NCBI GenBank assembly: GCA_043812955.1
Contig: JBDRLN010000066.1
Span: forward strand, 64,885-128,884
Source: Candidatus Omnitrophota bacterium
Lineage (GTDB): Bacteria; Omnitrophota; Gorgyraeia; Gygaellales; Profunditerraquicolaceae
DNA length: 64,000 nt
Direction of reading: 5' to 3'
The notes under the pieces are model-generated. The model saw only the letters and a program-made list of their open reading frames with translations. It ran no database searches and was not told the DNA's origin. This document shows, one piece after another, positions 1,992-23,336 of this stretch. Positions within the stretch are counted from its first letter, which is position 1. Every line of letters begins with the position of its first letter. Both the position numbers and the translations under genes were made by a program.

Positions 1992-2007
1992 AGCAATCAA
2001 AAACCTT

Positions 2008-2040: not shown

Positions 2041-2065
2041 ATACGGGTTAATTGAGGTGAAAAAT

Positions 2066-3490
2066 ATGAAAAGAAAGATAGTAATTTTTAGCCTGACATT
2101 TTTATTCCTCTTTAGTTTATCGCCGGGTAATCTTATTTTTCCCCAGGAGGATATTGAAAAACAGGTGATTGAATCCCTGGAATTCCGGGAAGTAGATATT
2201 AAGGATATCCTGAGGCAGCTGGCTAAACAATACAATCTCAATATCGTGTTTTCCGAGAACGTCAAAGGCCTGGTAACAGTGCAATTAAATATTGTCACTA
2301 TAGAACAGGCCATGGATTCTATAATTACGGTTAACGGGTTTTCTTATACCAAGAAGGAGAATGTGTATAAAGTTTCTACCCAGGAAGAGGCTTTACGCGA
2401 AGGAAAACAGACCAAACTTTTCAAATTGAATAACGCTGATGCCCTTAAGCTCAAAAATACCCTAGCTAAGGTTTTAACTGCCGAAGGCTCGATTGAAGCA
2501 GATAGCCGGTCTAATTCTATCCTGGTTACGGATTCAGTGAATGCGATCAATAAGATTGAGCAAATGATGTCGGTATTAGATGAGCTTACCCCTCAGGTTT
2601 TAATTGAGGCCAGGCTTATCGAAACCTCACTTACTAAAGCCGAAAATTTGGGTATTCAATGGGATACTACGATTGCAGCCAGTGGAGCGAAACGTCCGGT
2701 TACCTTTCCTTTTGATCCTTTAGGCGCTGGGACTGCTGACGCTAACCAGTGGTATAGGAACTATTTTCCTTCTTCCAACCCTACTGATACTAATTTTACC
2801 ACTACTTCAGGCCAGGCGTTTCCTTTTATTAACGCTACCAGTTTTACTTTTGGCACCCTGGATTTTTCTCAGTTGGCCGCGACATTTAAAATTCTTAAAA
2901 CCCGCGAAGATACCAAGCTTATCGCTAACCCCAGGATTGTAACTATCAATAATCAAAAAGCTACTATAAATGTAGGCAAGGTGATTCCAATAGCTACCTA
3001 TCAAATGGACTCAACTACCGGCCAATGGCTGGTTACCGGCTGGGAAAATATTAACGTGGGCATTAATCTGGAGGTTACTCCTCAGATTTCACCGGATGGG
3101 CATATCCGGTTAAAACTTAAGCCTGAGGTAAGCAGCGAGGTCGGCAGTATTGGTACGGGTGTAAACCAGAGGCCGATTATCACCACCCGCACTGCCGAGA
3201 CCGAAGTCCAGATCAGGGATGGCCAGACTGTAGTGATCGCCGGGTTAGTCAAAACCAAAGATTATACTCGAGTAAGCAAGATTCCTATTTTAGGCGATAT
3301 ACCTTTTTTGGGGTATTTATTTAAACGCAAGACCGAAGGCTCATCAGAACCTAATGAGAAAACCGATCTGATGATTTTTGTCACTGCCCGGATTATGAAA
3401 GATAATAAGGAGCCGCTGGTCGGCTGGGATACCAATATTTTAAGCTCTGTGCCCAGGCCGTTTAAATTAGAGAGCAGGGTCATTAAGTAA
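2066..3490 (+). CDS. pilQ: Type IV pilus secretin PilQ
   Basis: Signal peptide, then a secretin/GspD-PilQ C-terminal domain (IANPRIVTINNQKATINVG; ILGDIPFLGYLFKRK; VTARI). The ATG at 2066 has a GAGGTG RBS. The ORF track's start at 1988 overlaps the hairpin and is less likely. Confidence 0.85.
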   Translation: MKRKIVIFSLTFLFLFSLSPGNLIFPQEDIEKQVIESLEFREVDIKDILRQLAKQYNLNIVFSENVKGLVTVQLNIVTIEQAMDSIITVNGFSYTKKENVYKVSTQEEALREGKQTKLFKLNNADALKLKNTLAKVLTAEGSIEADSRSNSILVTDSVNAINKIEQMMSVLDELTPQVLIEARLIETSLTKAENLGIQWDTTIAASGAKRPVTFPFDPLGAGTADANQWYRNYFPSSNPTDTNFTTTSGQAFPFINATSFTFGTLDFSQLAATFKILKTREDTKLIANPRIVTINNQKATINVGKVIPIATYQMDSTTGQWLVTGWENINVGINLEVTPQISPDGHIRLKLKPEVSSEVGSIGTGVNQRPIITTRTAETEVQIRDGQTVVIAGLVKTKDYTRVSKIPILGDIPFLGYLFKRKTEGSSEPNEKTDLMIFVTARIMKDNKEPLVGWDTNILSSVPRPFKLESRVIK

Positions 3491-5051: not shown

Positions 5052-5704
5052 TTATAAGAAAACTTTCAGGAATGTTTACGGGCGTTTTTTTATTTATAGG
5101 CGCGGGTTTAGTTTTTGCTCAAGGCCTGGATATCGGGTTATCTAAAGAAGAGAAAGTCAAGAAGGCCCGGGAGTATTATTCCTCCGGAAGAGAAATGTCC
5201 CGGCAGGGCAATTTTACCCAGGCCAATGAGGCGTTTAAAAAAGCCCAGCAGCTTTTAGGAAGGGAAAAACTTAAATCCGTTACAGCTTTAGCAGCTCCGG
5301 TTGGCAATGCTCCGGCCCAGGCTGCTTTAAGCCAGGCTGCCGCTAAGAAAGAAATAGAACCCCTGATTATTAAGGGAACCCCGGAGGAGATGTCTATCCA
5401 CTATTTAAGAGCAATTGAAAAATCTCCCAAGGATTCGAATTTATATTATAATTTAGGGGTGGAGTATCTTAGATCTAACCGTTTCAGCCTGGCGGCCGAA
5501 GCCTTTAATCAGGTTATCCGGTTAAACCCCAAGGACAAAGACGCTTATTATAACCTGGGGGCATTATGTGAAAGCTACTTTAACGATAAAAACCGGGCCG
5601 TTATTTTTTATAGCCAGTATCTTAAATTAGCCGATAATAATGACGACGCATCCCGGGTAAGGAGCTGGATCAAGCAGATAAAAAAAGAATCAGGCGATAA
5701 ATGA
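5048..5704 (+). CDS. Secreted TPR-repeat protein, candidate PilF/PilW/Tgl-like secretin pilotin
   Basis: Signal peptide and TPR repeats (YYNLGVEYLRSNRFSLAAEAFNQVIRLNPKDKDAYYNLG). ATGA-coupled to the coiled-coil gene and directly upstream of pilB. Confidence 0.6.
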   Translation: MIIRKLSGMFTGVFLFIGAGLVFAQGLDIGLSKEEKVKKAREYYSSGREMSRQGNFTQANEAFKKAQQLLGREKLKSVTALAAPVGNAPAQAALSQAAAKKEIEPLIIKGTPEEMSIHYLRAIEKSPKDSNLYYNLGVEYLRSNRFSLAAEAFNQVIRLNPKDKDAYYNLGALCESYFNDKNRAVIFYSQYLKLADNNDDASRVRSWIKQIKKESGDK

Positions 5705-7518
5705 CCGATAAAGAATTAGAGAATTTATTAATAAGGACTAAACTTTTAACCCAAGAAGAGCTTTTCCGGGCTGTTGATGAGATGAAAAAACTCAAGCGGC
5801 CTTTAGAAAAAGTTATTTTGGAAATATGTCTTCTCTCCCGTCCGGTGCTTTATGAGGCGATTGCCAAGCACCTGGGGTATGAATATATAAAACTTGAAGA
5901 GGTTGAGCCGGATCCGGAATTGATCAAAGTTATGCCTGAGGCCTTGGCCCGCCAGACCCAATCTGTCCCCATAAAAATAGAAAATAATACTCTGCATGTG
6001 GCGGTAACCGACCCCACTGACCTTTATTCCATTGACCAGATCCAGATGCATACCGGGATGGCTTTGGAGGTGGTTTTATCCAGTCCCCAGGAAATAGAGG
6101 ATAGGCAGAACAAGCTTTATGTAGATCACAGGGTTAACAAAGATTTCATGGAGGATCTGACTAGGGCGGTGTCTTCAGATGTCAAGATTGTATTTACCGA
6201 TGCAAGCTCTATAATTAAATTAGTTGACTTGATTGTTGCTCAGGCAGCGCATGACCGGGCCTCGGATATCCATATTGAGCCGGAACAAGAAATGACCCGG
6301 ATAAGGTTTCGGATCGACGGCATACTGCATGAAATACCGTCTCCCCCCAAGGAATGGGAACAGGCGATTGTCTCCAGGGTCAAGGTATTGGCAGGCATGG
6401 ATATCGCTGAAAGCCGGGTTCCCCAGGATGGGCATTTCCAGGCTAAGATAGAAGAAAGGATCATTGATTTTCGTGTTTCTACCGTGCCTACTATTTTCGG
6501 AGAAAATTTGGTTATGCGTTTATTGGATACGAATTCAGTAACCATCGGTTTGGAAAAATTAGGGTTTACTACTTATGATGAATTAAAAAGATATGAAGCT
6601 ATTATCTCTAGGCCTTACGGAATAATTTTATCAACTGGTCCTACGGGGAGCGGTAAAACCACCACTCTTTATTCAGCCTTGATGCGGATTAATACCATTG
6701 ATCGCAATATTATCACTATCGAAGACCCGGTTGAATACCGCCTCGGACTTATCCGGCAGATCCAGGTAAACCCTAAGGCCGGGATCACTTTTGCTAATGG
6801 GCTAAGGGCGATCCTGCGCCAGGATCCTGATGTTTTAATGGTCGGCGAGATCCGGGACCTGGAGACCGCCATAATCGCTATCCAGTCCGCCCTAACCGGA
6901 CATTTGGTCTTTTCCACCCTACATACTAATGATGCGCCTTCGGCAGTCACTCGTTTAGTCAATATGGGAGTTGAGCCTTTTTTGATCTCAGCTTGTTTGA
7001 TCGGAGTTATGGCCCAGCGCCTGATCCGGACCATCTGTGATAAGTGCAAAGAGTCTTACGAGCCATCTAAATCCCTAATAGAAAGATGGGGATTAAGCGA
7101 TAAAAAAGGAGTTGTTTTATACCGGGGTAAAGGATGTGATAATTGTAAAGGCACAGGTTTTCGGGGGCGCAGCGGGCTATTTGAATTAATGACAGTTGAT
7201 GATGAACTAAGAGAGATGATTATCTCGGAAAGCTCTACTGTTTTATTACGTAATAAATCCCGGGAAAAAGGCATGCGGGTTTTAAGCGAGGACGGGATCG
7301 CTAAGGCCCTGGCTGGCATCACTACTATTGAAGAAGTGGCCAGGGTATGCGAAGAGCGGGTGGAGATTAAAAAGACCGAAGAATCGGTAGTTAAGGTCGA
7401 GCCTTTTATTAAGACTGCGTCAACAGCTCAAAAATCCGGAGCTAAGCCTATAGAGGTTAAGGTCTCGGATTATGAAGAATACCAGAAGCGCATAGCTAAC
7501 TGGTTAAGCAATAAATAG
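5701..7518 (+). CDS. pilB: Type IV pilus assembly (extension) ATPase PilB/GspE family
   Basis: N-terminal T2SSE_N domain; Walker A GPTGSGKTTT; DPVEY; Walker B/His box (VGEIRD); tetra-Cys (CDKC...CDNC). It carries a ~60-aa C-terminal extension. Confidence 0.9.
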   Translation: MTDKELENLLIRTKLLTQEELFRAVDEMKKLKRPLEKVILEICLLSRPVLYEAIAKHLGYEYIKLEEVEPDPELIKVMPEALARQTQSVPIKIENNTLHVAVTDPTDLYSIDQIQMHTGMALEVVLSSPQEIEDRQNKLYVDHRVNKDFMEDLTRAVSSDVKIVFTDASSIIKLVDLIVAQAAHDRASDIHIEPEQEMTRIRFRIDGILHEIPSPPKEWEQAIVSRVKVLAGMDIAESRVPQDGHFQAKIEERIIDFRVSTVPTIFGENLVMRLLDTNSVTIGLEKLGFTTYDELKRYEAIISRPYGIILSTGPTGSGKTTTLYSALMRINTIDRNIITIEDPVEYRLGLIRQIQVNPKAGITFANGLRAILRQDPDVLMVGEIRDLETAIIAIQSALTGHLVFSTLHTNDAPSAVTRLVNMGVEPFLISACLIGVMAQRLIRTICDKCKESYEPSKSLIERWGLSDKKGVVLYRGKGCDNCKGTGFRGRSGLFELMTVDDELREMIISESSTVLLRNKSREKGMRVLSEDGIAKALAGITTIEEVARVCEERVEIKKTEESVVKVEPFIKTASTAQKSGAKPIEVKVSDYEEYQKRIANWLSNK

Positions 7519-7530
7519 GAATAGTAAATT

Positions 7531-8361
7531 ATGTATGAATCTTACTGGTGCCTTAAGGAAAAACCTTTTCAGAATACTCCCGACTCAAATTATTTATATT
7601 TATCCGGCCAGCATGAAGACGCGCTGATGAAGCTTAGTTATGTAGTGGCCCAGGATCTGGGGTGCGGCCTGCTTACCGGGGTATTTGGGTGCGGTAAGAC
7701 ATTGTTAGGCCGGGTAGTAGTTAATGGTCTGGGCAAAGACAGATACGCCTCGGCTTTTGTCAATTGCCTTACTGCGTCCGAGCCTGCGGAACTACTGCGC
7801 GCAATTGTCCGGAGTTTAAGCCCCCAATCTTTGCCGGAGAAGAAAACCGAGATAATGGCTGATTCCCTGCTGGAAAAACTGAATAATATATTATTGGATA
7901 ATATCCGCGACGGAAAACGCAATATAATAATAGTTGACGAGGCCCATACCATCGAAGACCCCCGGATATTCGAGCAATTGCGGATGATCCTGAATTTTCA
8001 GCAGGAGGATAAATTTCTGCTGACCCTCTTGATCTTCGGCCAGCCGGAGTTAAAAGATAAGGTTACTATCTCTAAACCCCTGGAACAGAGGATTGCGGTG
8101 CGCTGCCATTTAAACCCTTTTAGCGAAGAGGATGTTGGCAAATATATCCTGCACCGTTTAAAGATATCCGGAAGGCCTGATCCTTCGGCCGAGGTTTTTA
8201 CCAAGGAGGCGATAAAGTTTATCGCTAAATACTCCGGGGGCATCCCCCGCAGGATCAATACGCTTTGTGATCTGGTTTTAATGACCGGTTTTGCCAAGAA
8301 GGCCAACCAGATCGATCAGGACCTTGTGGAATTAGCGATCAAGGATTTTAACGTTACCTAA
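7531..8361 (+). CDS. ExeA/GspA-like AAA ATPase (AAA_22), short form without TM or peptidoglycan-binding region
   Basis: N-terminus MYESYWCLKEKPFQNTPDSNYLYLSGQHEDAL matches the ExeA signature. Walker A GVFGCGKT; Walker B IIIVDEAH. Confidence 0.75.
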   Translation: MYESYWCLKEKPFQNTPDSNYLYLSGQHEDALMKLSYVVAQDLGCGLLTGVFGCGKTLLGRVVVNGLGKDRYASAFVNCLTASEPAELLRAIVRSLSPQSLPEKKTEIMADSLLEKLNNILLDNIRDGKRNIIIVDEAHTIEDPRIFEQLRMILNFQQEDKFLLTLLIFGQPELKDKVTISKPLEQRIAVRCHLNPFSEEDVGKYILHRLKISGRPDPSAEVFTKEAIKFIAKYSGGIPRRINTLCDLVLMTGFAKKANQIDQDLVELAIKDFNVT

Positions 8362-8370: not shown

Positions 8371-9600
8371 ATGGGTATATACATTTATAAAGCGGTAGAT
8401 TCAAGCGGTAAAATGATCAAGGGTGAAATGGAAGCGGCCAGCGAGGTTGAGCTTACCACCCAATTGGCTAAAACAGGTTATTTAGCGGTAAGCATAAATT
8501 TTAAAAAACAAGTCTTACCAAGTAAATCTATTTTTGAAATAAATCTGTTTAACACAAAAAAAACCGTTAAACAGGAAGCGGTCGTTGTTTTTACCCGCCA
8601 GTTCGCCACCATTATCAAAGCGGCTATACCGATAATCGAGGGTTTAGGGGTTTTGGCTGAGCAGGCCGAAGATCCGGTTTTAAAAGAGGCCTTAAAGCAG
8701 ATCGTTCGGGATGTCGAGGGAGGCATTAGCCTCTCCCAGTCAATGGCTAAACACCCCGGAGTTTTCTCTCCACTCTACGTAAATACCGTGATCGCCGGAG
8801 AAAGCGGCGGTGTTTTGGATAAAGTGTTGCTGAAATTATCAAAAGTAATGGAGGATGATTTTGAGACCCGCACGAATATAATGGCTGCCCTGAGGTATCC
8901 GATAATGACGATAATCGCACTTGTAATCGCGATCGTTGTGCTTTCGGTTTTTGTCGTGCCTCAATTCGCCAAAGTATATTTAGACGCCAAAATGAATTTA
9001 CCTTTGCCTACCCAAGTAATGATCATGATCAGTAATGTACTGATTCATCAGTGGTACCTGGTGATCGGCGCAGCGGCAGGAGTATTTTTCGGGGTAAAAC
9101 AATACATTGCTACCAAGCCAGGAAGGTTCTTCTGGGACGGGCTTAAGTTTAAAATAATTATTTTTAATAAGGTCTACATCAAGATGACCATGCTGCGTTT
9201 CGCTTCAATGTTAAGCGTGCTTCATCAGGCCGGCCTGCCGGTGCTTAAGACTTTAGATATTGTTTCTTTAACTATAGGCAATGCCATATTAGCCAAAGAG
9301 GTAGAGGCGATAAAGCGCGATGTTTCCGACGGTAAGGGTATCTCCGGAGCTGTTTTAAACTCAAAATTCTTCCCCCGTTTAGTCGGTTATATGATCTCAG
9401 TCGGGGAAAAAAGCGGTTCGCTTCCAATGATGCTGGATTCCCTTTGCGATTATTTTGATCTGGAAGTTAAAAACGCGATTAAAAATTTGACTACGATGAT
9501 TGAACCGGTGATGACCGCTTTTCTCGGGGCCGCGGTCTTAGGCATGGCCCTGGCGATATTCCTGCCCATGTGGAGCATGATCCAGGTGCTCAAGAGATAG
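8371..9600 (+). CDS. pilC: Type IV pilus inner-membrane platform protein PilC/GspF family
   Basis: Two GspF repeats with three TM helices; typical ~400-aa layout. Position after pilB. Confidence 0.85.
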   Translation: MGIYIYKAVDSSGKMIKGEMEAASEVELTTQLAKTGYLAVSINFKKQVLPSKSIFEINLFNTKKTVKQEAVVVFTRQFATIIKAAIPIIEGLGVLAEQAEDPVLKEALKQIVRDVEGGISLSQSMAKHPGVFSPLYVNTVIAGESGGVLDKVLLKLSKVMEDDFETRTNIMAALRYPIMTIIALVIAIVVLSVFVVPQFAKVYLDAKMNLPLPTQVMIMISNVLIHQWYLVIGAAAGVFFGVKQYIATKPGRFFWDGLKFKIIIFNKVYIKMTMLRFASMLSVLHQAGLPVLKTLDIVSLTIGNAILAKEVEAIKRDVSDGKGISGAVLNSKFFPRLVGYMISVGEKSGSLPMMLDSLCDYFDLEVKNAIKNLTTMIEPVMTAFLGAAVLGMALAIFLPMWSMIQVLKR

Positions 9601-10874: not shown

Positions 10875-11249
10875 ATGGGCATTGAAGAAAGAAGAGAACA
10901 TAAACGGGTATACATAAGGTTTAAGGTTGAATGCCGGGGAAAAAAATATTGGCAATATGTAGACGCGATGAATATTTCCGCCGGGGGTATGTTTATATTC
11001 ACCGAAAAGCTGGAACCGTTGGAAACGAAATTAGAGGTTATGTTTGAATTCGGCGACGGGATCGGCAAACTGATCAAGGCGGATGCGGTTGTCGCTTGGG
11101 TCAGGGAGAAAACGATAGAAGATATTAATGGTGATATAATCAAGCCGGCGGGTATGGGGCTGAAGTTTACCAAAGTCAGTCCTTTAACGGCAAAAGAATA
11201 TATTAATCAAGTGGTAGCAGCATCTAATAAGGAGAGTGGTGGTGGATAA
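10875..11249 (+). CDS. PilZ-domain c-di-GMP-binding protein
   Basis: RxxxR (RREHKR) and D/NxSxGG (NISAGGMF) motifs of the PilZ domain. Confidence 0.75.
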   Translation: MGIEERREHKRVYIRFKVECRGKKYWQYVDAMNISAGGMFIFTEKLEPLETKLEVMFEFGDGIGKLIKADAVVAWVREKTIEDINGDIIKPAGMGLKFTKVSPLTAKEYINQVVAASNKESGGG

Positions 11250-11823
11250 GCATACGATCCTGCTTGTTGATGATGAAAAGAATATTTTAAATAGTATCTC
11301 CAGGTTATTGCAGGATGATAGCCGGGAGATAATCACGGCGGAGAATTCGCGGGAGGCCCTGGAGAAATTAAAAAGTATAGGCGGGGTGGACCTGGTTATC
11401 TCTGATAACCGGCTCCCAGATTTCTCGGGAATTGATTTTTTGATCAAGGTAAGACAGCTCTATCCGAATACGATCCGGGTACTTATTACCGGATATCCCG
11501 ACGTGGAATCAGTCATCCATGCCATCAATAAGGGCCAGGTCTACCGGTTTATTACCAAGCCCTGGGATAATGAAGAGATCAAGGTAATTGTAAAACAGGC
11601 CCTGGATTTTTATGACGTATTAAAGGATAACCGTTCGCTTCTTAAGATCGCCCGCCAGCAGGCAGATCTGTTAAAGAGCGTCAAACAGAAATATCCTGAT
11701 ATCTCCCAGGCTGAATTTGATAAGAGCAGCCTGTATATAATAGATGAAAAAGTGATCTCTGCGAACCTCTCGGGGTTTATGCAGAAATATTACAGTCAGG
11801 ATAATACAGAGGCCAAGGATTAA
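11236..11823 (+). CDS. Response regulator receiver protein with a C-terminal domain of unknown function
   Basis: LLVDDE...D55-equivalent (VISDNRLPD)...K (ITKPW) receiver signature. GTG start with an AAGGAGAG RBS. No DNA-binding or sigma54 domain. Confidence 0.75.
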   Translation: MVVDKHTILLVDDEKNILNSISRLLQDDSREIITAENSREALEKLKSIGGVDLVISDNRLPDFSGIDFLIKVRQLYPNTIRVLITGYPDVESVIHAINKGQVYRFITKPWDNEEIKVIVKQALDFYDVLKDNRSLLKIARQQADLLKSVKQKYPDISQAEFDKSSLYIIDEKVISANLSGFMQKYYSQDNTEAKD

Positions 11824-11824
11824 T

Positions 11825-12661
11825 ATGGAAGGACTGGAATCAAAACTTATTAATTGTGGGTTGATTACTACCCAACAGGCGCTGCAGGCTGAAAAAGAGG
11901 CGCTGGACTGTAGGAAGTCCTTAAGCGCTGCTCTGGTAAAATTAGGGTTCGTAACGGAAGAAGGGATGGCTATATTTTTTGCCGACGAATGTTCGATACC
12001 GTATGTCCGGGTTTCAGATTATGTTATTTCTAGGGAAGTACTTAAAATACTGGATGAGAGTTTCTGCCGGCAGTATATGGTTATTCCGGTATTTAAGATA
12101 GGAAAAAGTTTATTTGTAGCCATGAATAACCCGTTGGATACCGCTCTAACGGATAACCTGTTTAAAATAACCAGCCTGGATATCGAGCCTTTGATTGCCT
12201 CCGGGACAGAGATATTAAGAAATATAAACTTGTATTATGGGCCGCAGGAGAAGAATTTCGAGGTTGAGAAATTCATAATTAATCAAAATACCATTAAGTG
12301 TGTGCCTTTTCATCGGGAATCGGAGAGGCTGAATTTAAAAATCCCGGTCAGTTTAACCATAGATGATAAAAATCTTGCTTTGCGCGGACTTTCTTCGGTA
12401 GATGGGTTTACCCAGAATATATCCAATGGAGGGACGGCTATAGGCCTGGAGGTATTTTTTTTTCTTCCTAAGGGGGTTAATTTAATCCTAGAGTTTAAGC
12501 TCTTTCAAGACCTAAAATCTACGGAAGAAATAATCAAAGCCAAGGGCCAGGTGGTCCATTACTCTATGGGTAAAAATAAGAAATTTTTACTTGGGGTACA
12601 ACTTGCTGACCTAGATAGGTCAGATCGGAATAAGCTTTTAAAACTTGCCAGCCAAAGATAA
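11825..12661 (+). CDS. T2SSE_N (GspE N-terminal/MshEN-like) domain fused to a PilZ domain
   Basis: N-terminal ~140 aa match the GspII_E N-domain fold sequence (CGLITTQQALQA...VFKIGKSLFVAMNNPLD). C-terminal RESER...NISNGGTAIG matches PilZ motifs. Confidence 0.7.
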   Translation: MEGLESKLINCGLITTQQALQAEKEALDCRKSLSAALVKLGFVTEEGMAIFFADECSIPYVRVSDYVISREVLKILDESFCRQYMVIPVFKIGKSLFVAMNNPLDTALTDNLFKITSLDIEPLIASGTEILRNINLYYGPQEKNFEVEKFIINQNTIKCVPFHRESERLNLKIPVSLTIDDKNLALRGLSSVDGFTQNISNGGTAIGLEVFFFLPKGVNLILEFKLFQDLKSTEEIIKAKGQVVHYSMGKNKKFLLGVQLADLDRSDRNKLLKLASQR

Positions 12662-13031
12662 TCTTTCTTTGAAAATACCTAAAATCATATTATTCAATAT
12701 TGTAGTTATTGCCTGTCAGTTTATCGCTCCCGGGTTAAATTACGCCCAGACCAGCGAGATAGTTAGGGAATTGGCCCTGGAGAGGGCCAAAGAAAAAAAA
12801 CCTACCCTCGAGACAGTTAAGAAGGATCAAGTAAAAAAACCAGAAAAGCTAAAATTAGCCAAACCTTTGATAAAGACTAAGCAGCCCAAAGTTGAAGAGA
12901 TTAAGCCAGTCAGCCGTAAATCCAATATGGGCCTGGAAGAGCCCAGGATGGCCCAGGAATCCAACGCTCTGGATAAAGAGCTGAAGGATTGGTTGGGTAA
13001 GCTTAAAACCATAGAATCTGTTCTTCCATAA
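12645..13031 (+). CDS. Lys/Glu-rich secreted hypothetical protein
   Basis: ORF with a hydrophobic N-terminus and then a low-complexity K/E/P region. Start codon uncertain (TTG in the track). Confidence 0.4.
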   Translation: MPAKDNLSLKIPKIILFNIVVIACQFIAPGLNYAQTSEIVRELALERAKEKKPTLETVKKDQVKKPEKLKLAKPLIKTKQPKVEEIKPVSRKSNMGLEEPRMAQESNALDKELKDWLGKLKTIESVLP

Positions 13032-13150: not shown

Positions 13151-13178
13151 TTGACAAAAATACTTATTATGCTAAAAT
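13151..13178 (+). promoter_or_regulatory. Sigma70-type promoter with extended -10 for pilA (TTGACA-N16-TGcTAAAAT)
   Basis: Read directly, 24 nt upstream of the AGGAGGTG RBS. Confidence 0.6.
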
Positions 13179-13201: not shown

Positions 13202-13549
13202 ATGAAAAGACATGGTTTTACGTTAATCGAACTAGTTATGGTTATTGTCATCATAGGTATATTAGCGGCAATTGCTATACCCAGGTTTGTCAGCTTAAGG
13301 GAAGATGCTCTGAGGGCAGCTTGTGAGGCTAATGCTGGAGCGTTAAGGGCGGCTATTTCTAATTTTTACGCCAACGCTACACTGCATAATGTTAATGAAA
13401 CCGACGCTTGGCCGGCGGATATTAGCAACGCAACGTTTATAAGTGCTTACATGCAATCTGCACCAGCAGCCCCAGTTAATGGCACTTGGGCGGCAGCTTA
13501 TTCTAATACTACAGGTATATTAAACATGACTCAAGCTTGCGGAAGTTAG
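13202..13549 (+). CDS. pilA: Type IV major pilin (prepilin, class III signal peptide)
   Basis: MKRHGFTLIELVMVIVIIGILAAIAIP: the G/F cleavage-methylation site and Glu+5. 115 aa. Strong RBS. The track's ORF start at 13151 is upstream of the true start. Confidence 0.9.
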   Translation: MKRHGFTLIELVMVIVIIGILAAIAIPRFVSLREDALRAACEANAGALRAAISNFYANATLHNVNETDAWPADISNATFISAYMQSAPAAPVNGTWAAAYSNTTGILNMTQACGS

Positions 13550-13572
13550 GATAAGAGTAAATAACTAATAAA

Positions 13573-13606
13573 AAGGAGAGGTTTAAAAACCTCTCCTTTT
13601 TTTTAC
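13573..13606 (+). terminator. Rho-independent terminator of pilA
   Basis: GGAGAGGTTT-aaaa-ACCTCTCC followed by T9. Confidence 0.8.
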
Positions 13607-13680: not shown

Positions 13681-14619
13681 TTAATAAAAGGGATAACTTT
13701 TCCTTCTTTCTTTGATGTAGGCGCTCTTTTCTAAATCGGCTTTGGCAAAATCTTTTATCTCGGATACGATCTGGATCGTCTGGGCAGGCGAGGTAAATTG
13801 GTAGGATTCATTAGTGGTTATTCCGATATGAATCTTAAGGATAGGTTTTTTTTCAAAATCACCCTTACGGTTTTTAAGCAGCACTCCATCCCTCTCCCGG
13901 TCCTCTCCATCATAAAAAGAAGCAATGCCTGCGTCAAAGTCATGGATTATTTTATCAGCAATTGAGTCAATGCTATCTGCCAGGCTTAAAAATATATAGT
14001 CGTCGTCTTGGGGATGAGAAAGAAAGTCTGATGGGGATCCGCGTTCTTTAAGCGCCCTCAAGATTATTGATCCGGCATACCGGATCACATCATCCCCGCG
14101 TTTAAATCCATAGCGCTGGTTAAAATCCCTTAATTTATCCATGTCCGCGTAATAAATAGCAAAGGGGTTCTTGCCGGCTATTCTTTTTTCTAATTCTTTA
14201 TATAGGCTGGATTGTCCGGGAAGTTTAGTTAAGGGATGGATGTCCTGCTGCCTGGCTATCCGGTATAAATTAAGTTTAACCTTTAATAATAGTTCATTTT
14301 CGACAGAGTTGCGGGAAATATAATCATCCGCTCCGGCATAGGTGATCCGGGCCTTATTTAAAAGATCGGAGTCAGAAAGGATGAATAATACCGGTATATA
14401 GCGGAAGAGAAAATTTTTCTTCAGGGCATTGCAGATCTCCAGGCCGTTTATATTCAAGGATTGGAATTCTGAAATGATCAGGTCGGGAAGTTCTTTTTCC
14501 AGGCCGGCGAGGGCAGCATCCTGGTCAGGGTAGACCTTGACCTCATAGTCTTCTCCTAAAAGCAGAAGGACAATCAGGTTTTGTAATGCAGGCTCGTTTG
14601 CTATTAGGCTTATTTTCAT
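13681..14619 (-). CDS. Receiver + GGDEF-family domain protein with a degenerate active-site motif (PQDDDY in place of GGDEF)
   Basis: N-terminal receiver (DLIISEF). GGDEF-domain landmarks LTKLPG, DMDKLRDFNQRYGFKRGD, IGITTN. The signature pentapeptide reads HPQDDDY. No RxxD I-site. Confidence 0.7.
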   Translation of the reverse strand: MKISLIANEPALQNLIVLLLLGEDYEVKVYPDQDAALAGLEKELPDLIISEFQSLNINGLEICNALKKNFLFRYIPVLFILSDSDLLNKARITYAGADDYISRNSVENELLLKVKLNLYRIARQQDIHPLTKLPGQSSLYKELEKRIAGKNPFAIYYADMDKLRDFNQRYGFKRGDDVIRYAGSIILRALKERGSPSDFLSHPQDDDYIFLSLADSIDSIADKIIHDFDAGIASFYDGEDRERDGVLLKNRKGDFEKKPILKIHIGITTNESYQFTSPAQTIQIVSEIKDFAKADLEKSAYIKERRKSYPFY

Positions 14620-15038: not shown

Positions 15039-15422
15039 ATGGCGAGAGTTATGATAGTAGATGACGCGCTTTTTATGCGTAAAATGCTGACTAAGACCTT
15101 GACCGAAGCCGGCCATGAAGTCTTGGCTGAGGCAGGCAATGCCAAAGAAGCCGTAGAGAAATATAAAAAGTTCAAACCGGACCTGGTAACTATGGACATT
15201 GTAATGCCATTGATGGAAGAGATGGATGGCATTGGCGCGGTAAAAGAGATCATTAGGATTGACCCCAAGGCCAAAATCCTGGTTTGTTCGGTAATGGGCC
15301 AGCAGTCGCTGGTAGTGGAAGCTATTCGTTCCGGCGCCAAGGATTTTGTGATTAAGCCTATCAAGCCTGAGAGGCTGATCGAGGCGGTGAATAAGGCGCT
15401 GATGTCCCAAGATAAAAAATAA
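15039..15422 (+). CDS. cheY: Chemotaxis response regulator CheY
   Basis: Single receiver domain, 127 aa, with D-D...D (TMDIVMP)...K. A TTGACA-N16-TATAAT promoter lies ~50 nt upstream. Confidence 0.85.
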   Translation: MARVMIVDDALFMRKMLTKTLTEAGHEVLAEAGNAKEAVEKYKKFKPDLVTMDIVMPLMEEMDGIGAVKEIIRIDPKAKILVCSVMGQQSLVVEAIRSGAKDFVIKPIKPERLIEAVNKALMSQDKK

Positions 15423-15425
15423 ATA

Positions 15426-16034
15426 ATGGCTGATATTGTTTTCAGTGATTCCCAGAAGGACGCCTTGCAGGAGATTGGCAATATCTGCGCCGGTAATGCC
15501 GCTACCGCCCTTTCCCAATTACTCAATAAAAAAATAAATATAGTTGTCCCTCGTATCCTCCTGGTCCGCCTGGAAGATGTCCCTATGGTGGTTGGAGGGC
15601 CGGATACGTTAGTAGCCGGGCTGATACTTAAGGTTTTAGGGGACCTGCCCAGCCATATCCTTTTTATTTTTTCCCAAAGAGACGCACTTATCCTGGCTTC
15701 GTTGTTGACTGGTAAAAAAGTTACTGAGTCCGGTATACTAGGGAGATTAGAGACATCTGCCCTTAAGGAGATCGGGGTTATCTTAGCCAGCTCTTATTTA
15801 GGCGCCTTAGGCAATTTTTTGGGGATGGGGTTAGTTCCGGCGGTCCCGGAATTAATTGTGGATATGGCCGGTTCAATGATAGACTATATTTTGATCGAAT
15901 TAAGTTGTAATTCGGAATTTGCCTTACTGATTGAATCGGAATTCAAGGAGCCTCAAGCTTCGATAACCGGACATTTTTTTCTCATTCCTAATGTCAGCGC
16001 CTTAGACGCCATACTTAAAGCCATAAATAAATAA
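15426..16034 (+). CDS. cheC: CheC/CheX-family CheY-P phosphatase
   Basis: Two CheC motifs (EIGNICAGNAATALS and EIGVILASSYLGAL). Confidence 0.75.
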   Translation: MADIVFSDSQKDALQEIGNICAGNAATALSQLLNKKINIVVPRILLVRLEDVPMVVGGPDTLVAGLILKVLGDLPSHILFIFSQRDALILASLLTGKKVTESGILGRLETSALKEIGVILASSYLGALGNFLGMGLVPAVPELIVDMAGSMIDYILIELSCNSEFALLIESEFKEPQASITGHFFLIPNVSALDAILKAINK

Positions 16035-17974
16035 TGATTCAAGACAGTTACCGTGAATTATTTTTCTCCGAATCCCAAGAGTATCTAAACAGTATTAATA
16101 AATGTTTATTGCGGGTTGAAACTAATCCCGGGGATTTTGAGGCTATAAATGAGATATTCCGCTGTATGCATACCTTAAAAGGTATGTCTGCCACTATGGG
16201 ATATGATAAGCTCACCCAGCTTTCCCATCATACCGAGGATCTTTTGGATGAATTGCGCTCTAAGAAAAAACAGGTCAGCGCGGAGATCATTGATGTGCTC
16301 TTTAGTTGTGTAGATATTCTAGAAAAATTAATAGACGCGGCAAAAGCCAAGAAAGAGCCTGGAGTGGATATTTACGGGTATATTGATAAAATAAAAAAAA
16401 TCATAATTAGGGAAGGGCAATCTTCACCTCTGGAGCCTAGGACTCAAGGCCTAGAGTTTAGCCCGGAGGAAAACTCGAGGCTAAGGGAATTAAAGGCCAG
16501 CGGTTTAAATATATTTAAAATAAAGATTACCCTGATTAAAGATTGCACTATGAAAGAGGCCCGGGCCTTCCTTTTGCTGACCAGCCTTAAAAAAATAGGC
16601 GAATTAATTAAGTCCATTCCTTCGGTCGAGGCCTTGAAGGAGGGTAATTTTGATTTATCTTTTACCTTTATTTTAGCTCTCCAGAAAGATGACAAGGCAG
16701 TCCACCAGAAATTATTGGGCGTAGCTGAGGTAGATGAAGTATCTATTGAGCCTGTAGTGATAGAAGACAATGCCTCCGGAGATATTCAGCCGCAGGCAGC
16801 GACAACTTATACCAAGAAGATCCAGAGCATGCGTATTAGCGTTGATAGATTGGATAAGATTATGAATCTGATGGGGGAATTAGCCATTGCCAAGATCCAG
16901 CTGATCCAGATTGTCCAGTCTTTTAAAATCAAGGAATTGGAGGAAGTTAGTTTTACCCTGGAACATCTAACTTCTACGCTTCAGGATGAAATAATCCAGA
17001 CCAGGCTTCTGCCGTTAGCCTATATCCTGGATACTTTTCCCAGGTTGGCCAGGGATTTGGCCAAGAAACAGGGTAAGAATATTGATCTGGAGATTATCGG
17101 CAGTGAAATAGAATTGGACCGGGTGGTTTTGGATGAGATAGGCGATCCGTTAGTCCATCTTATCCGCAACGCCATTGACCACGGTATTGAAGATCCCGAA
17201 GAGAGAAAAAAAACCGGTAAACCTGAGCAGGGGAAGATTCTTATTAAGGTAAGCCGCCAGAAAGGGCAGATATTTATTGAAGTTATTGATGACGGCAGAG
17301 GGGTTAATTTTAATGAAGTAAAACGCCTAGCCATAAAAAAAGGGATTATCAGTGAAAAAGACGCCGGTGATTTAGATGAAAAAAGGGTTTTGGATCTGAT
17401 CGCTCTGCCGGGTTTTTCTACTGCCGGGAAAATTACGGATATTTCCGGCCGGGGTGTCGGGCTGGATGTGGTTAAAGCCAAGATGGAGGTTTTAGGCGGG
17501 AGGGTGGATTTTGAAACTAAACAGGGTTCAGGAAGCCGTTTTATCTTAATTATTCCTTTAACCCTGGCTATAATTAAGGCTATGCTGGTCCGGGTCAGGA
17601 ACGAGATATTCGCCGTTCCTTTGATGAGTATAAGAGAGACTATCAAGATTGAAGAGAAAGAAATCAAAGTTTTACAGAGTTTTGAAGTAACCCGGGTCAG
17701 GGATGAGATCATCCCGATAATCCGCCTGGAGAAGAGCATGGGCTTAGAAGGCCTGGTAGCGGATAAAAAAGAGATCGAAAGGCGTAAATCAGTAGTAATT
17801 ATTGAGCATGGTAAAAAAGTTTTAGGCTTAGTGGTAAGCCAGGTAATAGGTGAACAGGACATAGTGGTCAAGCCTTTAGGCTCTATTATTAAGAAGACTA
17901 AGGGTATTGCCGGAGCAACTGTGTTAGGGGATGGCCGGGTTGCTTTAATCCTGGATACTATGAGTTTAGTATAA
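16034..17974 (+). CDS. cheA: Chemotaxis histidine kinase CheA
   Basis: HPt (HTLKGMSATMGY), dimerisation, HATPase (GRGVGLDVV) and a C-terminal CheW-like domain. Confidence 0.9.
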   Translation: MIQDSYRELFFSESQEYLNSINKCLLRVETNPGDFEAINEIFRCMHTLKGMSATMGYDKLTQLSHHTEDLLDELRSKKKQVSAEIIDVLFSCVDILEKLIDAAKAKKEPGVDIYGYIDKIKKIIIREGQSSPLEPRTQGLEFSPEENSRLRELKASGLNIFKIKITLIKDCTMKEARAFLLLTSLKKIGELIKSIPSVEALKEGNFDLSFTFILALQKDDKAVHQKLLGVAEVDEVSIEPVVIEDNASGDIQPQAATTYTKKIQSMRISVDRLDKIMNLMGELAIAKIQLIQIVQSFKIKELEEVSFTLEHLTSTLQDEIIQTRLLPLAYILDTFPRLARDLAKKQGKNIDLEIIGSEIELDRVVLDEIGDPLVHLIRNAIDHGIEDPEERKKTGKPEQGKILIKVSRQKGQIFIEVIDDGRGVNFNEVKRLAIKKGIISEKDAGDLDEKRVLDLIALPGFSTAGKITDISGRGVGLDVVKAKMEVLGGRVDFETKQGSGSRFILIIPLTLAIIKAMLVRVRNEIFAVPLMSIRETIKIEEKEIKVLQSFEVTRVRDEIIPIIRLEKSMGLEGLVADKKEIERRKSVVIIEHGKKVLGLVVSQVIGEQDIVVKPLGSIIKKTKGIAGATVLGDGRVALILDTMSLV

Positions 17975-17982
17975 TATAAAAT

Positions 17983-20121
17983 ATGAAAGAGATATTCGCT
18001 TTAGATATCGGCACGCGCAAGGTTATGGGCATTATTGCCCGTAAAAACGAAGACATGATAGAGGTATTGGATGTTGAGGTTATAGAGCATTCTGCTCGGC
18101 CGATGTTTGACGGGCAGATCCATAGTATTGATGAAGTAGCCAAGATTGTCAAGTTGATCCGGGAGAGGCTGGAGTTGCGCCTAAATAAAAAATTAACTCA
18201 GGTGGGGATTGCGGTTGCCGGAAGAAATCTAGTGACTTACAAAAGCAGGGTCGGTAAGGCTTTCGATTCTAAGCAGGAGATAACCCAAGACCTGGTAAGG
18301 GAGCTGGAGCTTGAGGCGGTGGATAATATCGTATCTGATTCGGGTAAAGATCTCTCGGAGTTCTATTGTGTAGGCTATAGCCCGGTTTATTATGAATTAG
18401 ATTCAAACCGAATCTCCAATCTTATCGGCCATATTGCCTTGTCAATAGCGGCTGAGGTAATAGTTACATTCCTGCCGCGGTTGGTATTAGACAGCATGTT
18501 CTCGGTTTTAAAGAAAGTCGGCCTTGAGGCGACCAATATAACTTTAGAGCCTATCTCGGCTATTAACGTGATAATCCCCGCGGAGATGCGTAATCTAAAT
18601 ATAGTCTTGGTAGATATCGGCGCGGGCACTTCGGATCTGGCCTTGACTAAAGCCGGGGTTATATTCGCTTACGGCATGGTCCCAGAAGCCGGAGATGAAG
18701 TAACTGAGAGGATCTCGGAAGTCCTCCTGGTGGATTTTGCCACAGCCGAAAAAATAAAGAGGTCATTAAATACTTTAAATGAAATTGAATATGAGGATAT
18801 TTGGGGCAGGCTGCGCCACACCCACTCCGTAAGTTTAAAACAGTTTTTAATGCCATCAGTAAAAAGATTGGCTGAATTGATCGCCAAGGCCGGCCTGGAA
18901 TTAAATGGGGGTATCCCCCAGGCAGTAGTAGCGGTAGGCGGAGGCAGCCTTACTTTTAATTTAATGGAAGAACTGGCTTCGAGCTTTGGCCTGCCCTTAG
19001 ATAAAGTAGGCATCCGTCTTCCTCAGGCGATAAAGAATATCCAGGATGCCCATAAGAAATTAACCGGCCCGGAAGCGGTTACGCCCATCGGTATTGCCCA
19101 GATGACCGCTAATATCCAGGGGTTGCGTTTTATTGAAGTTGAAGTTAATGGTAAAAAGAACAAGATACTGGATTTTTATCAAAAAAAGGACGTCATGGGG
19201 GCGATTGCTATTTCCGGAGTGCTTAATAATAAAAAGTTGTATGCCCGGCCAGGGATGGCCTTGACCGTTAAGGTTAACGGCGAATTAAAAATTATTAAAG
19301 GAACAATGGGCGAACCAGCCAGAATATTTTTAAATAGCAGGTTGGTTGCTTCTTTATCCGAAAAGATAAACGACGCCGACAAGATTGAATTTCAGGGGGC
19401 TGTGGATGGCCTTGATGGCACAGCAATGATCAGGGACCTGGTGCAGATAGAACCCCTTGCCGTTATCTTTAACCAGGAGATCCTACATATTGTTGCCCCT
19501 ATAATTATGGACGGCGTTGAGGTAAGCTTAGGCGTTGCGGTCTATGACCGGGCGGAAGTTTTCCACTCAATATTAAAGGTAAAGGATATTTTAAAATTTA
19601 AGGATATAAAATTAGAGGATTTATCCCAGAGGCAGGTCCTGGTAAATATCAACGGGACGCCGAAGATCTTAACCCAGAGGAATTTTACCCTCCTAGTAAA
19701 TAATAATATTGCGGATTTAGATACTGAAGTTAAAGAAAATGATACGCTGGAGTTTATCTACCAAACACCTACTTTCTATAGGATAAAAGATATAATCGAC
19801 TTGCCCGAAGGGCCTAAAAAATTAAATATCAATGTTGATGGTAAAGACTTGGAGATAGCTGTAGAGCCGGTGCAGGTCTTTATGAACGGCCACCAGGTCA
19901 GTCCTGAGGAGTTTGTAATCGATGGGGCTGACATCCGGGTCTACTCTTTAAGGGAGCGCCAGATTTTACTTTCTGAGATATTCCGCTATATTGACTTTGA
20001 CCCCCAGAGGGCGGTAGGCAAAAGGATGAAAATATTAGTTAATGACCAGCCTGCAGGGTTTACCACTCTTTTAAAAGAGGGCTCAAGGGTGAATATTATT
20101 TTGGAAGATAGGGAGGAATAA
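17983..20121 (+). CDS. FtsA/PilM-like actin-fold ATPase fused to ~4 tandem ThiS/MoaD-like beta-grasp repeats (712 aa)
   Basis: N-terminus ALDIGTRKV...VDIGAGTSDLAL...AEKIKRSL follows the FtsA/ASKHA phosphate-1/2/adenosine motifs. The C-terminal 350 aa contain repeated V(K/N)(V/I)NG...(D/N)xD(K/T)(I/L)E(F/I) units. Confidence 0.6.
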   Translation: MKEIFALDIGTRKVMGIIARKNEDMIEVLDVEVIEHSARPMFDGQIHSIDEVAKIVKLIRERLELRLNKKLTQVGIAVAGRNLVTYKSRVGKAFDSKQEITQDLVRELELEAVDNIVSDSGKDLSEFYCVGYSPVYYELDSNRISNLIGHIALSIAAEVIVTFLPRLVLDSMFSVLKKVGLEATNITLEPISAINVIIPAEMRNLNIVLVDIGAGTSDLALTKAGVIFAYGMVPEAGDEVTERISEVLLVDFATAEKIKRSLNTLNEIEYEDIWGRLRHTHSVSLKQFLMPSVKRLAELIAKAGLELNGGIPQAVVAVGGGSLTFNLMEELASSFGLPLDKVGIRLPQAIKNIQDAHKKLTGPEAVTPIGIAQMTANIQGLRFIEVEVNGKKNKILDFYQKKDVMGAIAISGVLNNKKLYARPGMALTVKVNGELKIIKGTMGEPARIFLNSRLVASLSEKINDADKIEFQGAVDGLDGTAMIRDLVQIEPLAVIFNQEILHIVAPIIMDGVEVSLGVAVYDRAEVFHSILKVKDILKFKDIKLEDLSQRQVLVNINGTPKILTQRNFTLLVNNNIADLDTEVKENDTLEFIYQTPTFYRIKDIIDLPEGPKKLNINVDGKDLEIAVEPVQVFMNGHQVSPEEFVIDGADIRVYSLRERQILLSEIFRYIDFDPQRAVGKRMKILVNDQPAGFTTLLKEGSRVNIILEDREE

Positions 20122-20240
20122 AATATACTCATACTCCGCTACGTAAGCGCTGCCGAAATTATCTGCGATAATTTTGGCGCACTTCGCGGAGTCTCACTAA
20201 ATGCGCCTATGGCGCTAAATTGTGTTCGAGGAGGTTAGAG

Positions 20241-20504
20241 ATGCAGATCCATAATTATATGGAGGATATTGTCAGGGACGCATTGGAAGAATTGCTTGCT
20301 CAAAAAGATAATATTTGCAAGTGCCAGAAGTGCAAGCTGGATATGATGGTCTGGGCCTTAAACCGTATGCTCCCTAAATACTCAGTATCGGATAAAGGGA
20401 GATTTTTTACTAAATTAGGAGAAGAAGAAATTCAATCCAAGGTTGATGTAGTCAGGGAGCTGACCAAGGCTATTACGAATATCAGTAAGAACCCGCGGCA
20501 TTAA
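20241..20504 (+). CDS. ComFB-family small protein (4-Cys; family reported as cyclic-dinucleotide receptors)
   Basis: HNYMEDIVRDALEELL...ICKCQKCKLDMMVWALNRMLPKY matches the ComFB signature. ATG at 20241 behind a GAGGAGGT RBS; the track's start at 20220 is less likely. Confidence 0.65.
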   Translation: MQIHNYMEDIVRDALEELLAQKDNICKCQKCKLDMMVWALNRMLPKYSVSDKGRFFTKLGEEEIQSKVDVVRELTKAITNISKNPRH

Positions 20505-20516
20505 ATTAAATATTTT

Positions 20517-21356: not shown

Positions 21357-21391
21357 ATTTTAATGAATCTAACTAAAAGGAGGTAAGGGTT

Positions 21392-21763: not shown

Positions 21764-21770
21764 ATTCTTT

Positions 21771-22274: not shown

Positions 22275-22297
22275 ATCAAAAAGAGGTGTAAATCGTA

Positions 22298-23332: not shown

Positions 23333-23336
23333 ATAT

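Follow-up and report, generated by a model that had tools for sequence, protein, structure and literature searches.

Organization of the pilus locus

The 64-kb stretch of Omnitrophota DNA analyzed here (hereafter, the window) carries a type IV pilus gene cluster on its plus strand, from approximately position 80 to position 13,550. The gene set resembled that of mannose-sensitive hemagglutinin (MSH)-type pili, and all of its gene types (PilN-like/PilO/PilP-like, secretin, TPR protein, MshE-like ATPase, ExeA/MshM-like ATPase, MshG/PilC, and pilin) were recognized by Pfam except PilO/P; sister loci preserve the gene order. The pilus ATPase was scored equally by the GspE and PilB models. Between the genes for the platform protein PilC and the pilin lie genes for a histidine kinase, a small membrane protein, a stand-alone PilZ protein (PilZ124), a single-domain receiver (REC195), and a protein that joins an N-terminal MshEN (T2SSE_N) domain to a C-terminal PilZ domain. 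This last protein, hereafter the fusion, is the subject of our analysis.

The order of the kinase, PilZ, receiver, and fusion genes and their domain assignments agreed with an original prediction made from the DNA sequence, as all four genes were on the plus strand and supported by Pfam; the interval that it had singled out, 10875–12661, corresponds to the PilZ, receiver, and fusion genes, with the kinase gene just upstream. Domains were assigned at the Pfam gathering thresholds (23.1 for PF05157 and 22.5 for PF07238), with scores far above them. The genes for PilZ124 and the receiver overlap by 14 nt, and the receiver stop codon is 1 nt ahead of the fusion ATG; given this spacing (−14 and +1 nt), the three genes appear to form one translationally coupled unit, which is preceded by a 214-nt gap and a promoter-like site.

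N-terminal domain of the fusion

The N-terminal half of the fusion proved homologous to the N-domains of PilB-type ATPases. A phmmer search of the PDB matched the fusion to Myxococcus xanthus PilB (3.6e-15), Xanthomonas citri PilB-N (2.2e-11), and MshE (1.7e-7), and the homology extended over residues 5–143, beyond the stretch covered by Pfam. The PilB model TIGR02538 matched residues 4–144 only, no match to the T2SSE ATPase domain (PF00437) was found in the protein, and its N-terminal half was assigned to MshEN with no match to the PilZN/YcgR_N families. The structure predicted by AlphaFold2 (AF2) from 20 family sequences, with a mean predicted local distance difference test (pLDDT) score of 82.8 and a predicted template modeling (pTM) score of 0.78, consisted of a four-helix bundle and an α/β subdomain, a disordered linker (residues 142–165), and a β-barrel with a C-terminal helix. 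Using Foldseek, the best match of the N-terminal half was the structure of MshEN with cyclic di-GMP (c-di-GMP) (PDB ID: 5htl; 1e-8, TM-score 0.78), followed by the PilF GSPII domains and the X. citri PilB N-domain.

In MshEN domains, c-di-GMP is bound by two repeats of 24 residues, RLGxx(L/V/I)(L/V/I)xxG(L/I/F)(L/V/I)xxxxLxxxLxxQ, separated by a 5-residue spacer (Wang et al. 2016, PMC5013675). We evaluated this motif in a relaxed form of the published pattern ([RKPN]hGxxhhxx[GAS]hhxxxxhxxxhxx[QNKRYWST], two copies, 5 residues apart; PMC5013675) and by the NCBIfam model NF053729 (‘c-di-GMP_motif’), which has a curated cutoff of 38 bits. When the repeats of the fusion were placed in register with those of M. 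xanthus PilB, the 5-residue spacer and most of the scaffold hydrophobics were found to be kept. Positions 1 (Arg), 3 (Gly), and 24 (Gln) failed in both repeats, and position 21 of the Leu cluster was a charged Glu in the first. The Gly at position 3 contacts guanine through its backbone amide; in the fusion, it is replaced by E5, which is nearly invariant across the family, and by S34, for which most members have Trp, and the family consensus at the two positions was Glu and Trp. Where MshE carries a basic patch, members of this family have an acidic N-terminus, with E2 and E5 almost invariant.

When the relaxed motif was sought in 46 family proteins, a set that included 50%-identity representatives, it matched none. 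With NF053729, the full-length fusion scored 18.1 bits, its residues 1–90 scored 21.0 bits, and one relative in the family scored 23.8 bits. As positive controls, two proteins representing a second, canonical PilB of sister Omnitrophota genomes scored 65.8 and 65.0 bits, and this second PilB matched the relaxed motif once or twice, demonstrating that the test discriminates within the phylum. Among characterized domains, c-di-GMP is not bound by Thermus thermophilus PilF GSPII-A, in which one repeat is good and the other degenerate (PMC11731258), nor by XpsE with G11V, R38G, G40L, and related changes (PMC5013675). On sequence grounds, a canonical c-di-GMP site in the fusion N-domain is very improbable. 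Pfam ‘MshEN’ matches are not to be taken as c-di-GMP receptors without a check of the motif.

PilZ domain of the fusion

The C-terminal half of the fusion carries both motifs of canonical PilZ domains, RxxxR at the end of the interdomain linker and (D/N)xSxxG within the domain. Residues R164, R168, I199, S200, and G203 were invariant in 20 family sequences down to 40% identity, and this invariance over a range of 40–90% identity argues for selection on nucleotide binding. A strict regular expression for the PilZ motifs matched 39 of the 46 family proteins, again with 50%-identity representatives included. The AF2 model showed a full PilZ barrel (strands within residues 168–261) and a helix at residues 265–276; the C-terminal helix is conserved and carries LLKLA. 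Foldseek matched this half to c-di-GMP-bound PilZ structures (PDB IDs: 4i86, 5vx6, 3kyg, 4rt1, and 2rde), the proteins concerned being the PilZ domains of cellulose synthase, MotI, VCA0042, PP4397, and Alg44.

Non-binding PilZ proteins characteristically lack RxxxR/(D/N)xSxxG (PilZ surveys: Galperin & Chou; sequence similarity network (SSN) preprint). The PilB-binding PilZ proteins of type II (PA2960/XAC1133) are marked by motif loss and a truncated barrel; the motifs of the fusion are intact and its barrel is full. PilZ124 also contained both motifs (R7xxxR11 and N33-I-S-A-G-G). The sequence thus predicts one intact c-di-GMP site in the fusion, in the PilZ domain, and no canonical MshEN site. 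The original prediction of two c-di-GMP-binding sites in one polypeptide was not supported by the motif analysis, in which the MshEN site scored 18–21 bits against the cutoff of 38. It had also named degeneration of both domains as what would speak against it: the N-domain motif was degenerate, whereas the PilZ motifs were intact, with R164, R168, S200, and G203 invariant.

Distribution and genomic context

The fusion family was found almost only in Omnitrophota. A word-indexed search of 5.8 billion proteins yielded 20 clusters at 90% identity, and a full hidden Markov model (HMM) scan of 1.84 billion representatives yielded approximately 30 clusters of this short form at 50% identity, plus a long form. 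The closest relatives of the fusion are all annotated as proteins of Omnitrophota/Omnitrophica metagenome-assembled genomes (MAGs), and the public annotation of the family is ‘PilZ domain-containing protein’ only. For synteny analysis, we used one genome per GTDB species and obtained 20 loci with full-length matches (sister loci, designated by L numbers), all from Omnitrophota or from bins labeled uncultured Planctomycetia/Planctomycetales or ‘uncultured bacterium’. The other matches in the GTDB scan were ordinary PilB N-domains of other phyla.

In all 20 sister loci, the fusion gene was located in the same pilus cluster, directly after PilC and any intervening genes for the kinase, small open reading frame (ORF), PilZ, or receiver, which bears out the originally proposed dedication of the protein to the pilus. 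Its companions were less constant: the kinase, the 71-aa membrane ORF, and PilZ124 were each present in 13 of the 20 loci and the receiver in 16. Minimal arrangements were PilC-fusion (L012), PilC-smallORF-fusion-pilin (L013 and L014), and PilC-smallORF-REC-fusion-pilin (L017, L018, and L020), with the pilin gene directly 3′ of the fusion gene in the last five of these loci. Because the companions vary and the fusion is always present, the fusion appears to be the constant pilus-dedicated element, with the two-component pair and the extra PilZ protein being accessory. A divergent GC-rich member of the family, also from Omnitrophica, adjoins PilS/PilR-like genes and two pilin genes.

The long form comprises Omnitrophota paralogues of 340–640 aa (P0160–P0232; e.g., P0163, P0170, and P0204) with a transmembrane anchor, a coiled coil, MshEN, and PilZ. 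In the HMM scan, this family was larger than the short form, with which its two-domain core is alignable from end to end, and two of its members are labeled as proteins of Deltaproteobacteria MAGs. The first MshEN repeat of the long form was near-canonical, its NF053729 score of 58.5 bits passed the cutoff, and its PilZ motifs were intact; on these motifs, the long form, rather than the fusion in the window, is the stronger candidate for a chain with two c-di-GMP receptors. A location of the long form beside a pilus cluster was not borne out in one large contig (L081, 8001–9062), where housekeeping genes adjoin it near a prophage-like region, and no long-form paralogue was present in the 80 retrieved loci.

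Neighboring PilB and a second pilus machine

The original prediction had pointed to the adjacent pilB as possessing a T2SSE_N domain of its own. The domain was present, but it also lacked the c-di-GMP motif: its NF053729 score was 21.5–25.5 bits against the cutoff of 38, and none of 11 adjacent-PilB sequences (that of the window and 10 orthologues) matched the relaxed motif. The fusion N-domain showed 22–26% identity (42–46 bits) to the N-domain of the neighboring PilB and 28–33% identity (69–85 bits) to that of the second, canonical PilB (L004, L010, and L011). Its origin by recent duplication of the N-terminus of the neighboring PilB was rejected, as identity was 22% and the domain was closer to the second PilB of the sister genomes.

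In five sister loci, the second PilB is encoded in a further secretin/PilB/PilC cluster 2–9 kb downstream of the fusion gene and has the canonical tandem motif. The equivalent position in the window is occupied by a chemosensory cluster. No second T2SSE ATPase (PilT or PilB) was detected in the 64-kb window by tblastn with PilB (E ≤ 1e-3); the core of this query itself matches the PilT family model (1e-50). In Pfam scans, the remaining window ORFs of at least 110 aa returned chemotaxis, transport, and housekeeping genes or no match, and no PilT; the absence of pilT from the window, as originally noted, therefore held in both searches.

Proposed role of the fusion

On balance, we favor the interpretation that the fusion is a PilZ-type c-di-GMP receptor for the adjacent MSH-like pilus, the output module of which is a c-di-GMP-blind copy of the PilB N1D (ND0+ND1). 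In two-domain PilZ proteins of the YcgR/PlzD type, the linker between the domains carries RxxxR, and the N-terminal target-binding domain changes its orientation when nucleotide binds. The fusion could operate similarly: c-di-GMP would bind RxxxR, the element with which the flexible linker ends, and thereby change the orientation of the N1D-like domain with respect to the PilZ barrel. In its new position, this domain would engage, or let go of, a surface that normally recognizes the N1D of PilB, candidates being the PilM/PilN-like platform, the N-domain ring of PilB itself, or a PilZ fold. Motor docking, and hence pilus extension, would be gated in this way, and c-di-GMP sensing, which takes place in cis on the ATPase in Vibrio MshE, would have passed to a PilZ adaptor acting in trans. 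Further, optional inputs based on c-di-GMP and phosphorylation may come from PilZ124, the receiver, and the sensor-less kinase with its putative 71-aa partner. The effect on the pilus could be activation or a brake, either of which would fit these data.

The mode of domain contact was considered in light of X. citri, in which the motif-less residues 12–163 of PilB bind a PilZ fold through ND1, another face of ND1 being proposed for PilM (Llontop et al. 2021, PMC8389850). The best PDB sequence match of the fusion ND1 was X. citri PilB ND1 (4.2e-9). In the gapless alignment, the residues of the hydrophobic PilZ-binding pocket of X. citri PilB corresponded to those of the fusion as follows: L72 to V61, F77 to Y66, L100 to V89, F101 to F90, F108 to F97, and I134 to L123, with Y66, F90, and L123 being invariant in the fusion family. 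The signature P[LV]FK was common to the fusion and X. citri PilB and was not found in the cognate PilB (PIKI), the long-form paralogue (PIDK), or the PilBs of M. xanthus and Geobacter (PVNR). Even with 24 linker residues disordered, the model reached a pTM of 0.78, which suggests that the two domains have a defined arrangement. Together, the retained pocket and this score are consistent with an intramolecular ND1–PilZ contact that c-di-GMP could make or break, which would expose or hide an N1D surface competing or cooperating with the N1D of PilB at the platform.

Several points weigh against this interpretation. The pocket similarity rests on approximately six residues, and the salt-bridge residue R103 of X. 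citri PilB is not kept, the fusion having I92. The PilZ protein of X. citri is of the non-canonical type, and the analogy in docking may therefore not hold. PilF GSPII-B binds c-di-GMP at 6 nM although Lys and Leu replace its two Arg residues (PMC11731258), indicating that the motif rules are not absolute and that weak or non-canonical binding by the fusion N-domain is possible. Finally, as the N-domain is closer to the second PilB than to the adjacent one, the fusion might have a target other than the adjacent machine.

The last point leads to the alternative that the N1D-like domain mimics the second, canonical type IVa pilus PilB, and that the fusion acts there or picks the active motor. 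The scores in L004, L010, and L011 (69–85 bits against 42–46 bits for the adjacent PilB) and the second secretin/PilB/PilC cluster 2–9 kb downstream in five sister loci are compatible with such cross-talk. However, the fusion gene is always within the MSH-like cluster, often flanked directly by the PilC and pilin genes of that cluster, the 64-kb window encodes no second PilB, and the likeness may reflect evolutionary origin only; we regard this explanation as quite unlikely. Binding of c-di-GMP by both the MshEN-fold and PilZ domains, in a two-threshold or cooperative switch, is highly unlikely. Although both folds are genuine, the spacer and most hydrophobic positions of the repeats are kept (7/11 and 8/11), Arg is dispensable in PilF GSPII-B, and the long-form paralogue of the same architecture passes the motif model at 58.5 bits, the fusion has replaced both Gly residues, lost both terminal Gln residues, and acquired a charge at position 21 of motif 1 and an acidic N-terminus. 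Furthermore, none of the 46 proteins matched the relaxed motif, scores of 18–24 bits contrast with a cutoff of 38 that the controls pass, and the less degenerate PilF GSPII-A and XpsE do not bind.

The PilZ motifs also bear on whether the fusion is a constitutive structural cofactor or chaperone that stabilizes or localizes PilB or the platform without c-di-GMP, its PilZ motifs being vestigial. There is precedent in Xanthomonas and Pseudomonas PilZ, which is needed for piliation without binding c-di-GMP and stabilizes the PilB N-domain (PMC11656802), and L012–L014, with PilC, the fusion, and a pilin gene but no signaling partners, indicate that the fusion works without them. Vestigial motifs are difficult to reconcile with the invariance of RxxxR and (D/N)xSxxG at 40–90% identity, considering that non-binding PilZ proteins characteristically lack them, and we judge this role to be just as improbable as dual binding. 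Least probable of all is a two-component output in which control lies primarily with phosphorylated REC195, bound to the MshEN-like domain, and c-di-GMP is secondary. The receiver stop codon lies 1 nt from the fusion ATG, the receiver occurs in 16 of the 20 loci with its phospho-acceptor set intact, and REC+MshEN fusions found elsewhere (P0021; also Wang et al., PMC5013675) offer a Rosetta-stone hint. Yet the fusion persists where the receiver (4/20 loci) or the kinase (7/20 loci) is absent, and input from either cannot, therefore, be essential to its core function. The REC+MshEN fusions nevertheless make a phosphorylation input onto the N1D-like domain plausible, albeit dispensable in some lineages.

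The favored interpretation, a c-di-GMP receptor with a PilB-like output module, can be extended speculatively to the family as a whole. Omnitrophota may display two stages in a hand-over of c-di-GMP sensing, with the long form as the ancestral two-receptor protein and the emptied N1D of the short form as a c-di-GMP-gated motor-docking decoy, perhaps selecting between two pilus motors (a ‘YcgR for pili’) as a clutch or selector that works through domain mimicry. Because the fusion N-domain is more like the second PilB than its neighbor, such a decoy might decide which motor engages the platform. We consider this extension unlikely.

Comparison with known systems

The routes by which c-di-GMP reaches pilus motors differ among bacteria, with MshEN acting in cis in Vibrio and Myxococcus and FimX/PilZ adaptors acting in Xanthomonas; the role of N1D/PilZ partners is debated (PMC11656802). 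A close parallel to the arrangement proposed here is the X. citri PilB–PilZ–FimX complex (PDB IDs: 7LKO and 7LKM), in which a PilZ fold likewise accompanies a motif-less PilB ND0+ND1 and the motor receives its c-di-GMP input in trans. Unlike in X. citri, the N1D-like and PilZ domains of the fusion are in one polypeptide, apart from the ATPase, and its PilZ domain is canonical and a predicted binder, whereas X. citri PilZ is non-binding and relies on the EAL domain of FimX. No FimX-like protein was found in the locus. The fusion shares with YcgR, PlzD (VCA0042), PP4397, and MotI an N-terminal domain, a linker with RxxxR, and a PilZ barrel, and its mechanism would be expected to be alike; it differs from them in having a PilB-N1D/MshEN fold in place of PilZN/YcgR_N and in its link to a type IV pilus rather than the flagellar motor.

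V. cholerae MshE, M. xanthus PilB, Clostridium perfringens PilB2, and T. thermophilus PilF GSPII-B/C have the same N-domain fold as the fusion, and the gene set of the window is MSH-like. In contrast to these proteins, in which two intact repeats form part of an ATPase, the repeats are degenerate in both the fusion and its cognate ATPase. A degenerate motif in an MshEN fold is also the condition of PilF GSPII-A and Xanthomonas campestris XpsE-N, which are experimentally non-binding; those are domains of ATPases, whereas that of the fusion is detached from the ATPase and joined to PilZ. The long-form paralogues, from the same phylum, have the same two-domain core, and only they possess the transmembrane anchor and coiled coil.

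No paper on the MshEN–PilZ architecture or its name variants was found in a literature search that was partial for subscription journals. The MshEN fusions listed by Wang et al. involve REC, HD-GYP, CheA, CheX, cyclase, kinase, glycosyltransferase, and ATPase domains, and PilZ is not among them in the text or supplement (PMC5013675). The PilZ surveys by Galperin & Chou and the SSN preprint do not mention the combination either. We provisionally regard the architecture as undescribed, with each domain belonging to a known family and the locus being a recognizable pilus cluster; the fusion would enlarge the PilZ repertoire by an output domain not described before.

That an N1D-like and a canonical PilZ domain occur naturally in one protein provides a Rosetta-stone argument for N1D–PilZ pairing as an old and general regulatory interface. 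The argument is strengthened by the fixation of the gene in a pilus operon whose ATPase lost its MshEN site, and by the suggestion that the interface extends beyond gammaproteobacteria and that a canonical PilZ domain can feed c-di-GMP directly into it. Being small and soluble, with one predicted c-di-GMP site and a detachable N1D, the fusion should be a handy in vitro handle on N1D binding.

Other features of the locus and the window

The features of the locus are listed in Table 1.

Table 1. Features of the pilus locus in the window, elements of the fusion, and second pilus clusters in sister loci
Feature	Position	Strand	Evidence or remarks
PilN-domain protein, two small ORFs, secretin, coiled-coil protein, and TPR protein (MshN-like), in this order before PilB	PilN-domain protein, 81–917; secretin, 1988–3490	+	Pfam
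PilB/MshE-like extension ATPase (‘B1’)	5701–7518	+	T2SSE 456 bits, 7e-137; MshEN 77 bits, 1e-21
ExeA/MshM-like AAA ATPase	7531–8361	+	AAA_22 3.4e-19
PilC/MshG platform protein	8371–9600	+	T2SSF 206 bits, 1.5e-61, two repeats
Histidine kinase, 285 aa	9604–10461	+	One N-terminal transmembrane helix (residues 5–24), H61 box, HisKA + HATPase_c
71-aa protein, two predicted transmembrane helices	10445–10660	+	Ribosome-binding site AAGGAGGAGAGG, then ATG 10445; 17-nt overlap with kinase stop codon
Stand-alone PilZ protein (PilZ124), 124 aa	10875–11249	+	PilZ 41.4 bits, 2e-10; TIGR02266 2.9e-13
Single-domain receiver (REC195), 195 aa	11236–11823	+	Response_reg 73.6 bits, 1.8e-20
MshEN (T2SSE_N)+PilZ fusion, 278 aa	11825–12661	+	MshEN 66.5 bits (residues 57–142); PilZ 37.8 bits (residues 164–274)
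Fusion residues 1–142, PilB-N1D/MshEN-fold domain (four-helix bundle + α/β ND1)	11825–12250	+	Pfam, phmmer, AF2, Foldseek
Fusion motif 1, residues 3–26, GLESKLINCGLITTQQALQAEKEA	11831–11902	+	7/11 positions of relaxed motif
Fusion motif 2, residues 32–55, SLSAALVKLGFVTEEGMAIFFADE	11918–11989	+	8/11 positions of relaxed motif
Fusion interdomain linker, residues 142–165	12248–12319	+	pLDDT <50; ends at RxxxR; F145 invariant
Fusion PilZ domain, residues 164–278	12314–12661	+	PilZ 37.8 bits, 2.5e-9
R164-E-S-E-R168	12314–12328	+	
N198-I-S-N-G-G203	12416–12433	+	
ORF, 128 aa, Lys-rich	12645–13031	+	TTG start; signal-peptide-like N-terminus; between fusion and pilin genes
Promoter-like site 5′ of pilin gene	13151–13178		TTGACA-16-TAAAAT, 11/12 positions match
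Major pilin gene	13202–13549	+	N_methyl 3e-9; prepilin cleavage G|FTLIELV
Hairpin, 14-bp stem	13570–13601		Between pilin gene and convergent REC-GGDEF-like gene
Second pilus cluster, L004	12275–20326		
Second pilus cluster, L006	7109–13864		
Second pilus cluster, L010	14050–20826		
Second pilus cluster, L011	14036–20801		
Second pilus cluster, L012	2332–9149		

ExeA/MshM-like ATPases are typical of MSH-type pilus loci. That of the window showed 62–91% identity to those of the sister loci having it, and no match was found between PilB and PilC in L010, L011, and L003. Beyond the transmembrane anchor, HisKA, and HATPase_c, a Pfam scan revealed no sensor domain in the histidine kinase, the best NCBIfam match of which was the T2SS_HK subfamily (1e-64, under the cutoff of that model). 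The 71-aa membrane protein, which matched no Pfam family, may be the missing ‘sensor’ partner of this sensor-less kinase; where detected by tblastn in sister loci, it had 39–72% identity and was always located between the PilC/kinase genes and the PilZ/receiver/fusion genes.

The receiver has a full phospho-acceptor set (D12/D13/D57/T85/K108) and a helical tail of approximately 70 aa. It matched NF053512 at 1.1e-52 over residues 8–151, corresponding to profile positions 1–143 of 422, and resembles the REC and linker regions of REC-HD-GYP (RpfG/NosR-type) regulators without the HD-GYP domain. The protein looks like an RpfG-type regulator whose phosphodiesterase domain was lost or never present.

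Downstream of the fusion gene, the 128-aa ORF was considered and not counted in the system, as it was conserved in the closest relative only (L001, 60%) and had no family match; its coding status is uncertain. The pilin ORF opens at 13151, and its probable true start is the ATG at 13202. The hairpin beyond the pilin gene is the likely end of the operon.

A complete chemosensory system (15039–26314 on the plus strand and 27284–27907 on the minus strand) lies directly downstream of the pilus locus and comprises CheY, CheC, CheA, CheR, CheY, CheD, CheB, CheC, CheW, one methyl-accepting chemotaxis protein, and a CheC-like gene; it may control pilus-based motility. Within its operon, a 712-aa protein (17983–20121, plus strand; 85% identical in L001) has an FtsA/MreB/PilM-like actin-fold N-terminal half and a weak ThiS-like region, and is unusual for a chemotaxis cluster. 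The chemosensory cluster is bracketed by two REC-GGDEF-like paralogues on the minus strand (13681–14619 and 26320–27279; 43% identical), which have QDDDY and GGDDF instead of GG(D/E)EF and matched only the first half of the GGDEF profile. These features suggest that the pair is probably devoid of cyclase activity, and they may be receptors or adaptors.

Elsewhere in the window, ORFs of 386, 447, 136, 179, 202, and 650 aa (35452–37933, 40031–41120, and 53262–55975; plus strand) matched no Pfam family at the thresholds used, and the remainder includes genes for transporters, Rnf, FtsH, enolase, and RNR. A 450-aa protein approximately 43 kb from the pilus locus (55959–57311, plus strand) contains HD and HD_5 (HD-GYP-type) domains and an unassigned N-terminus of 214 aa, and may be a c-di-GMP phosphodiesterase.

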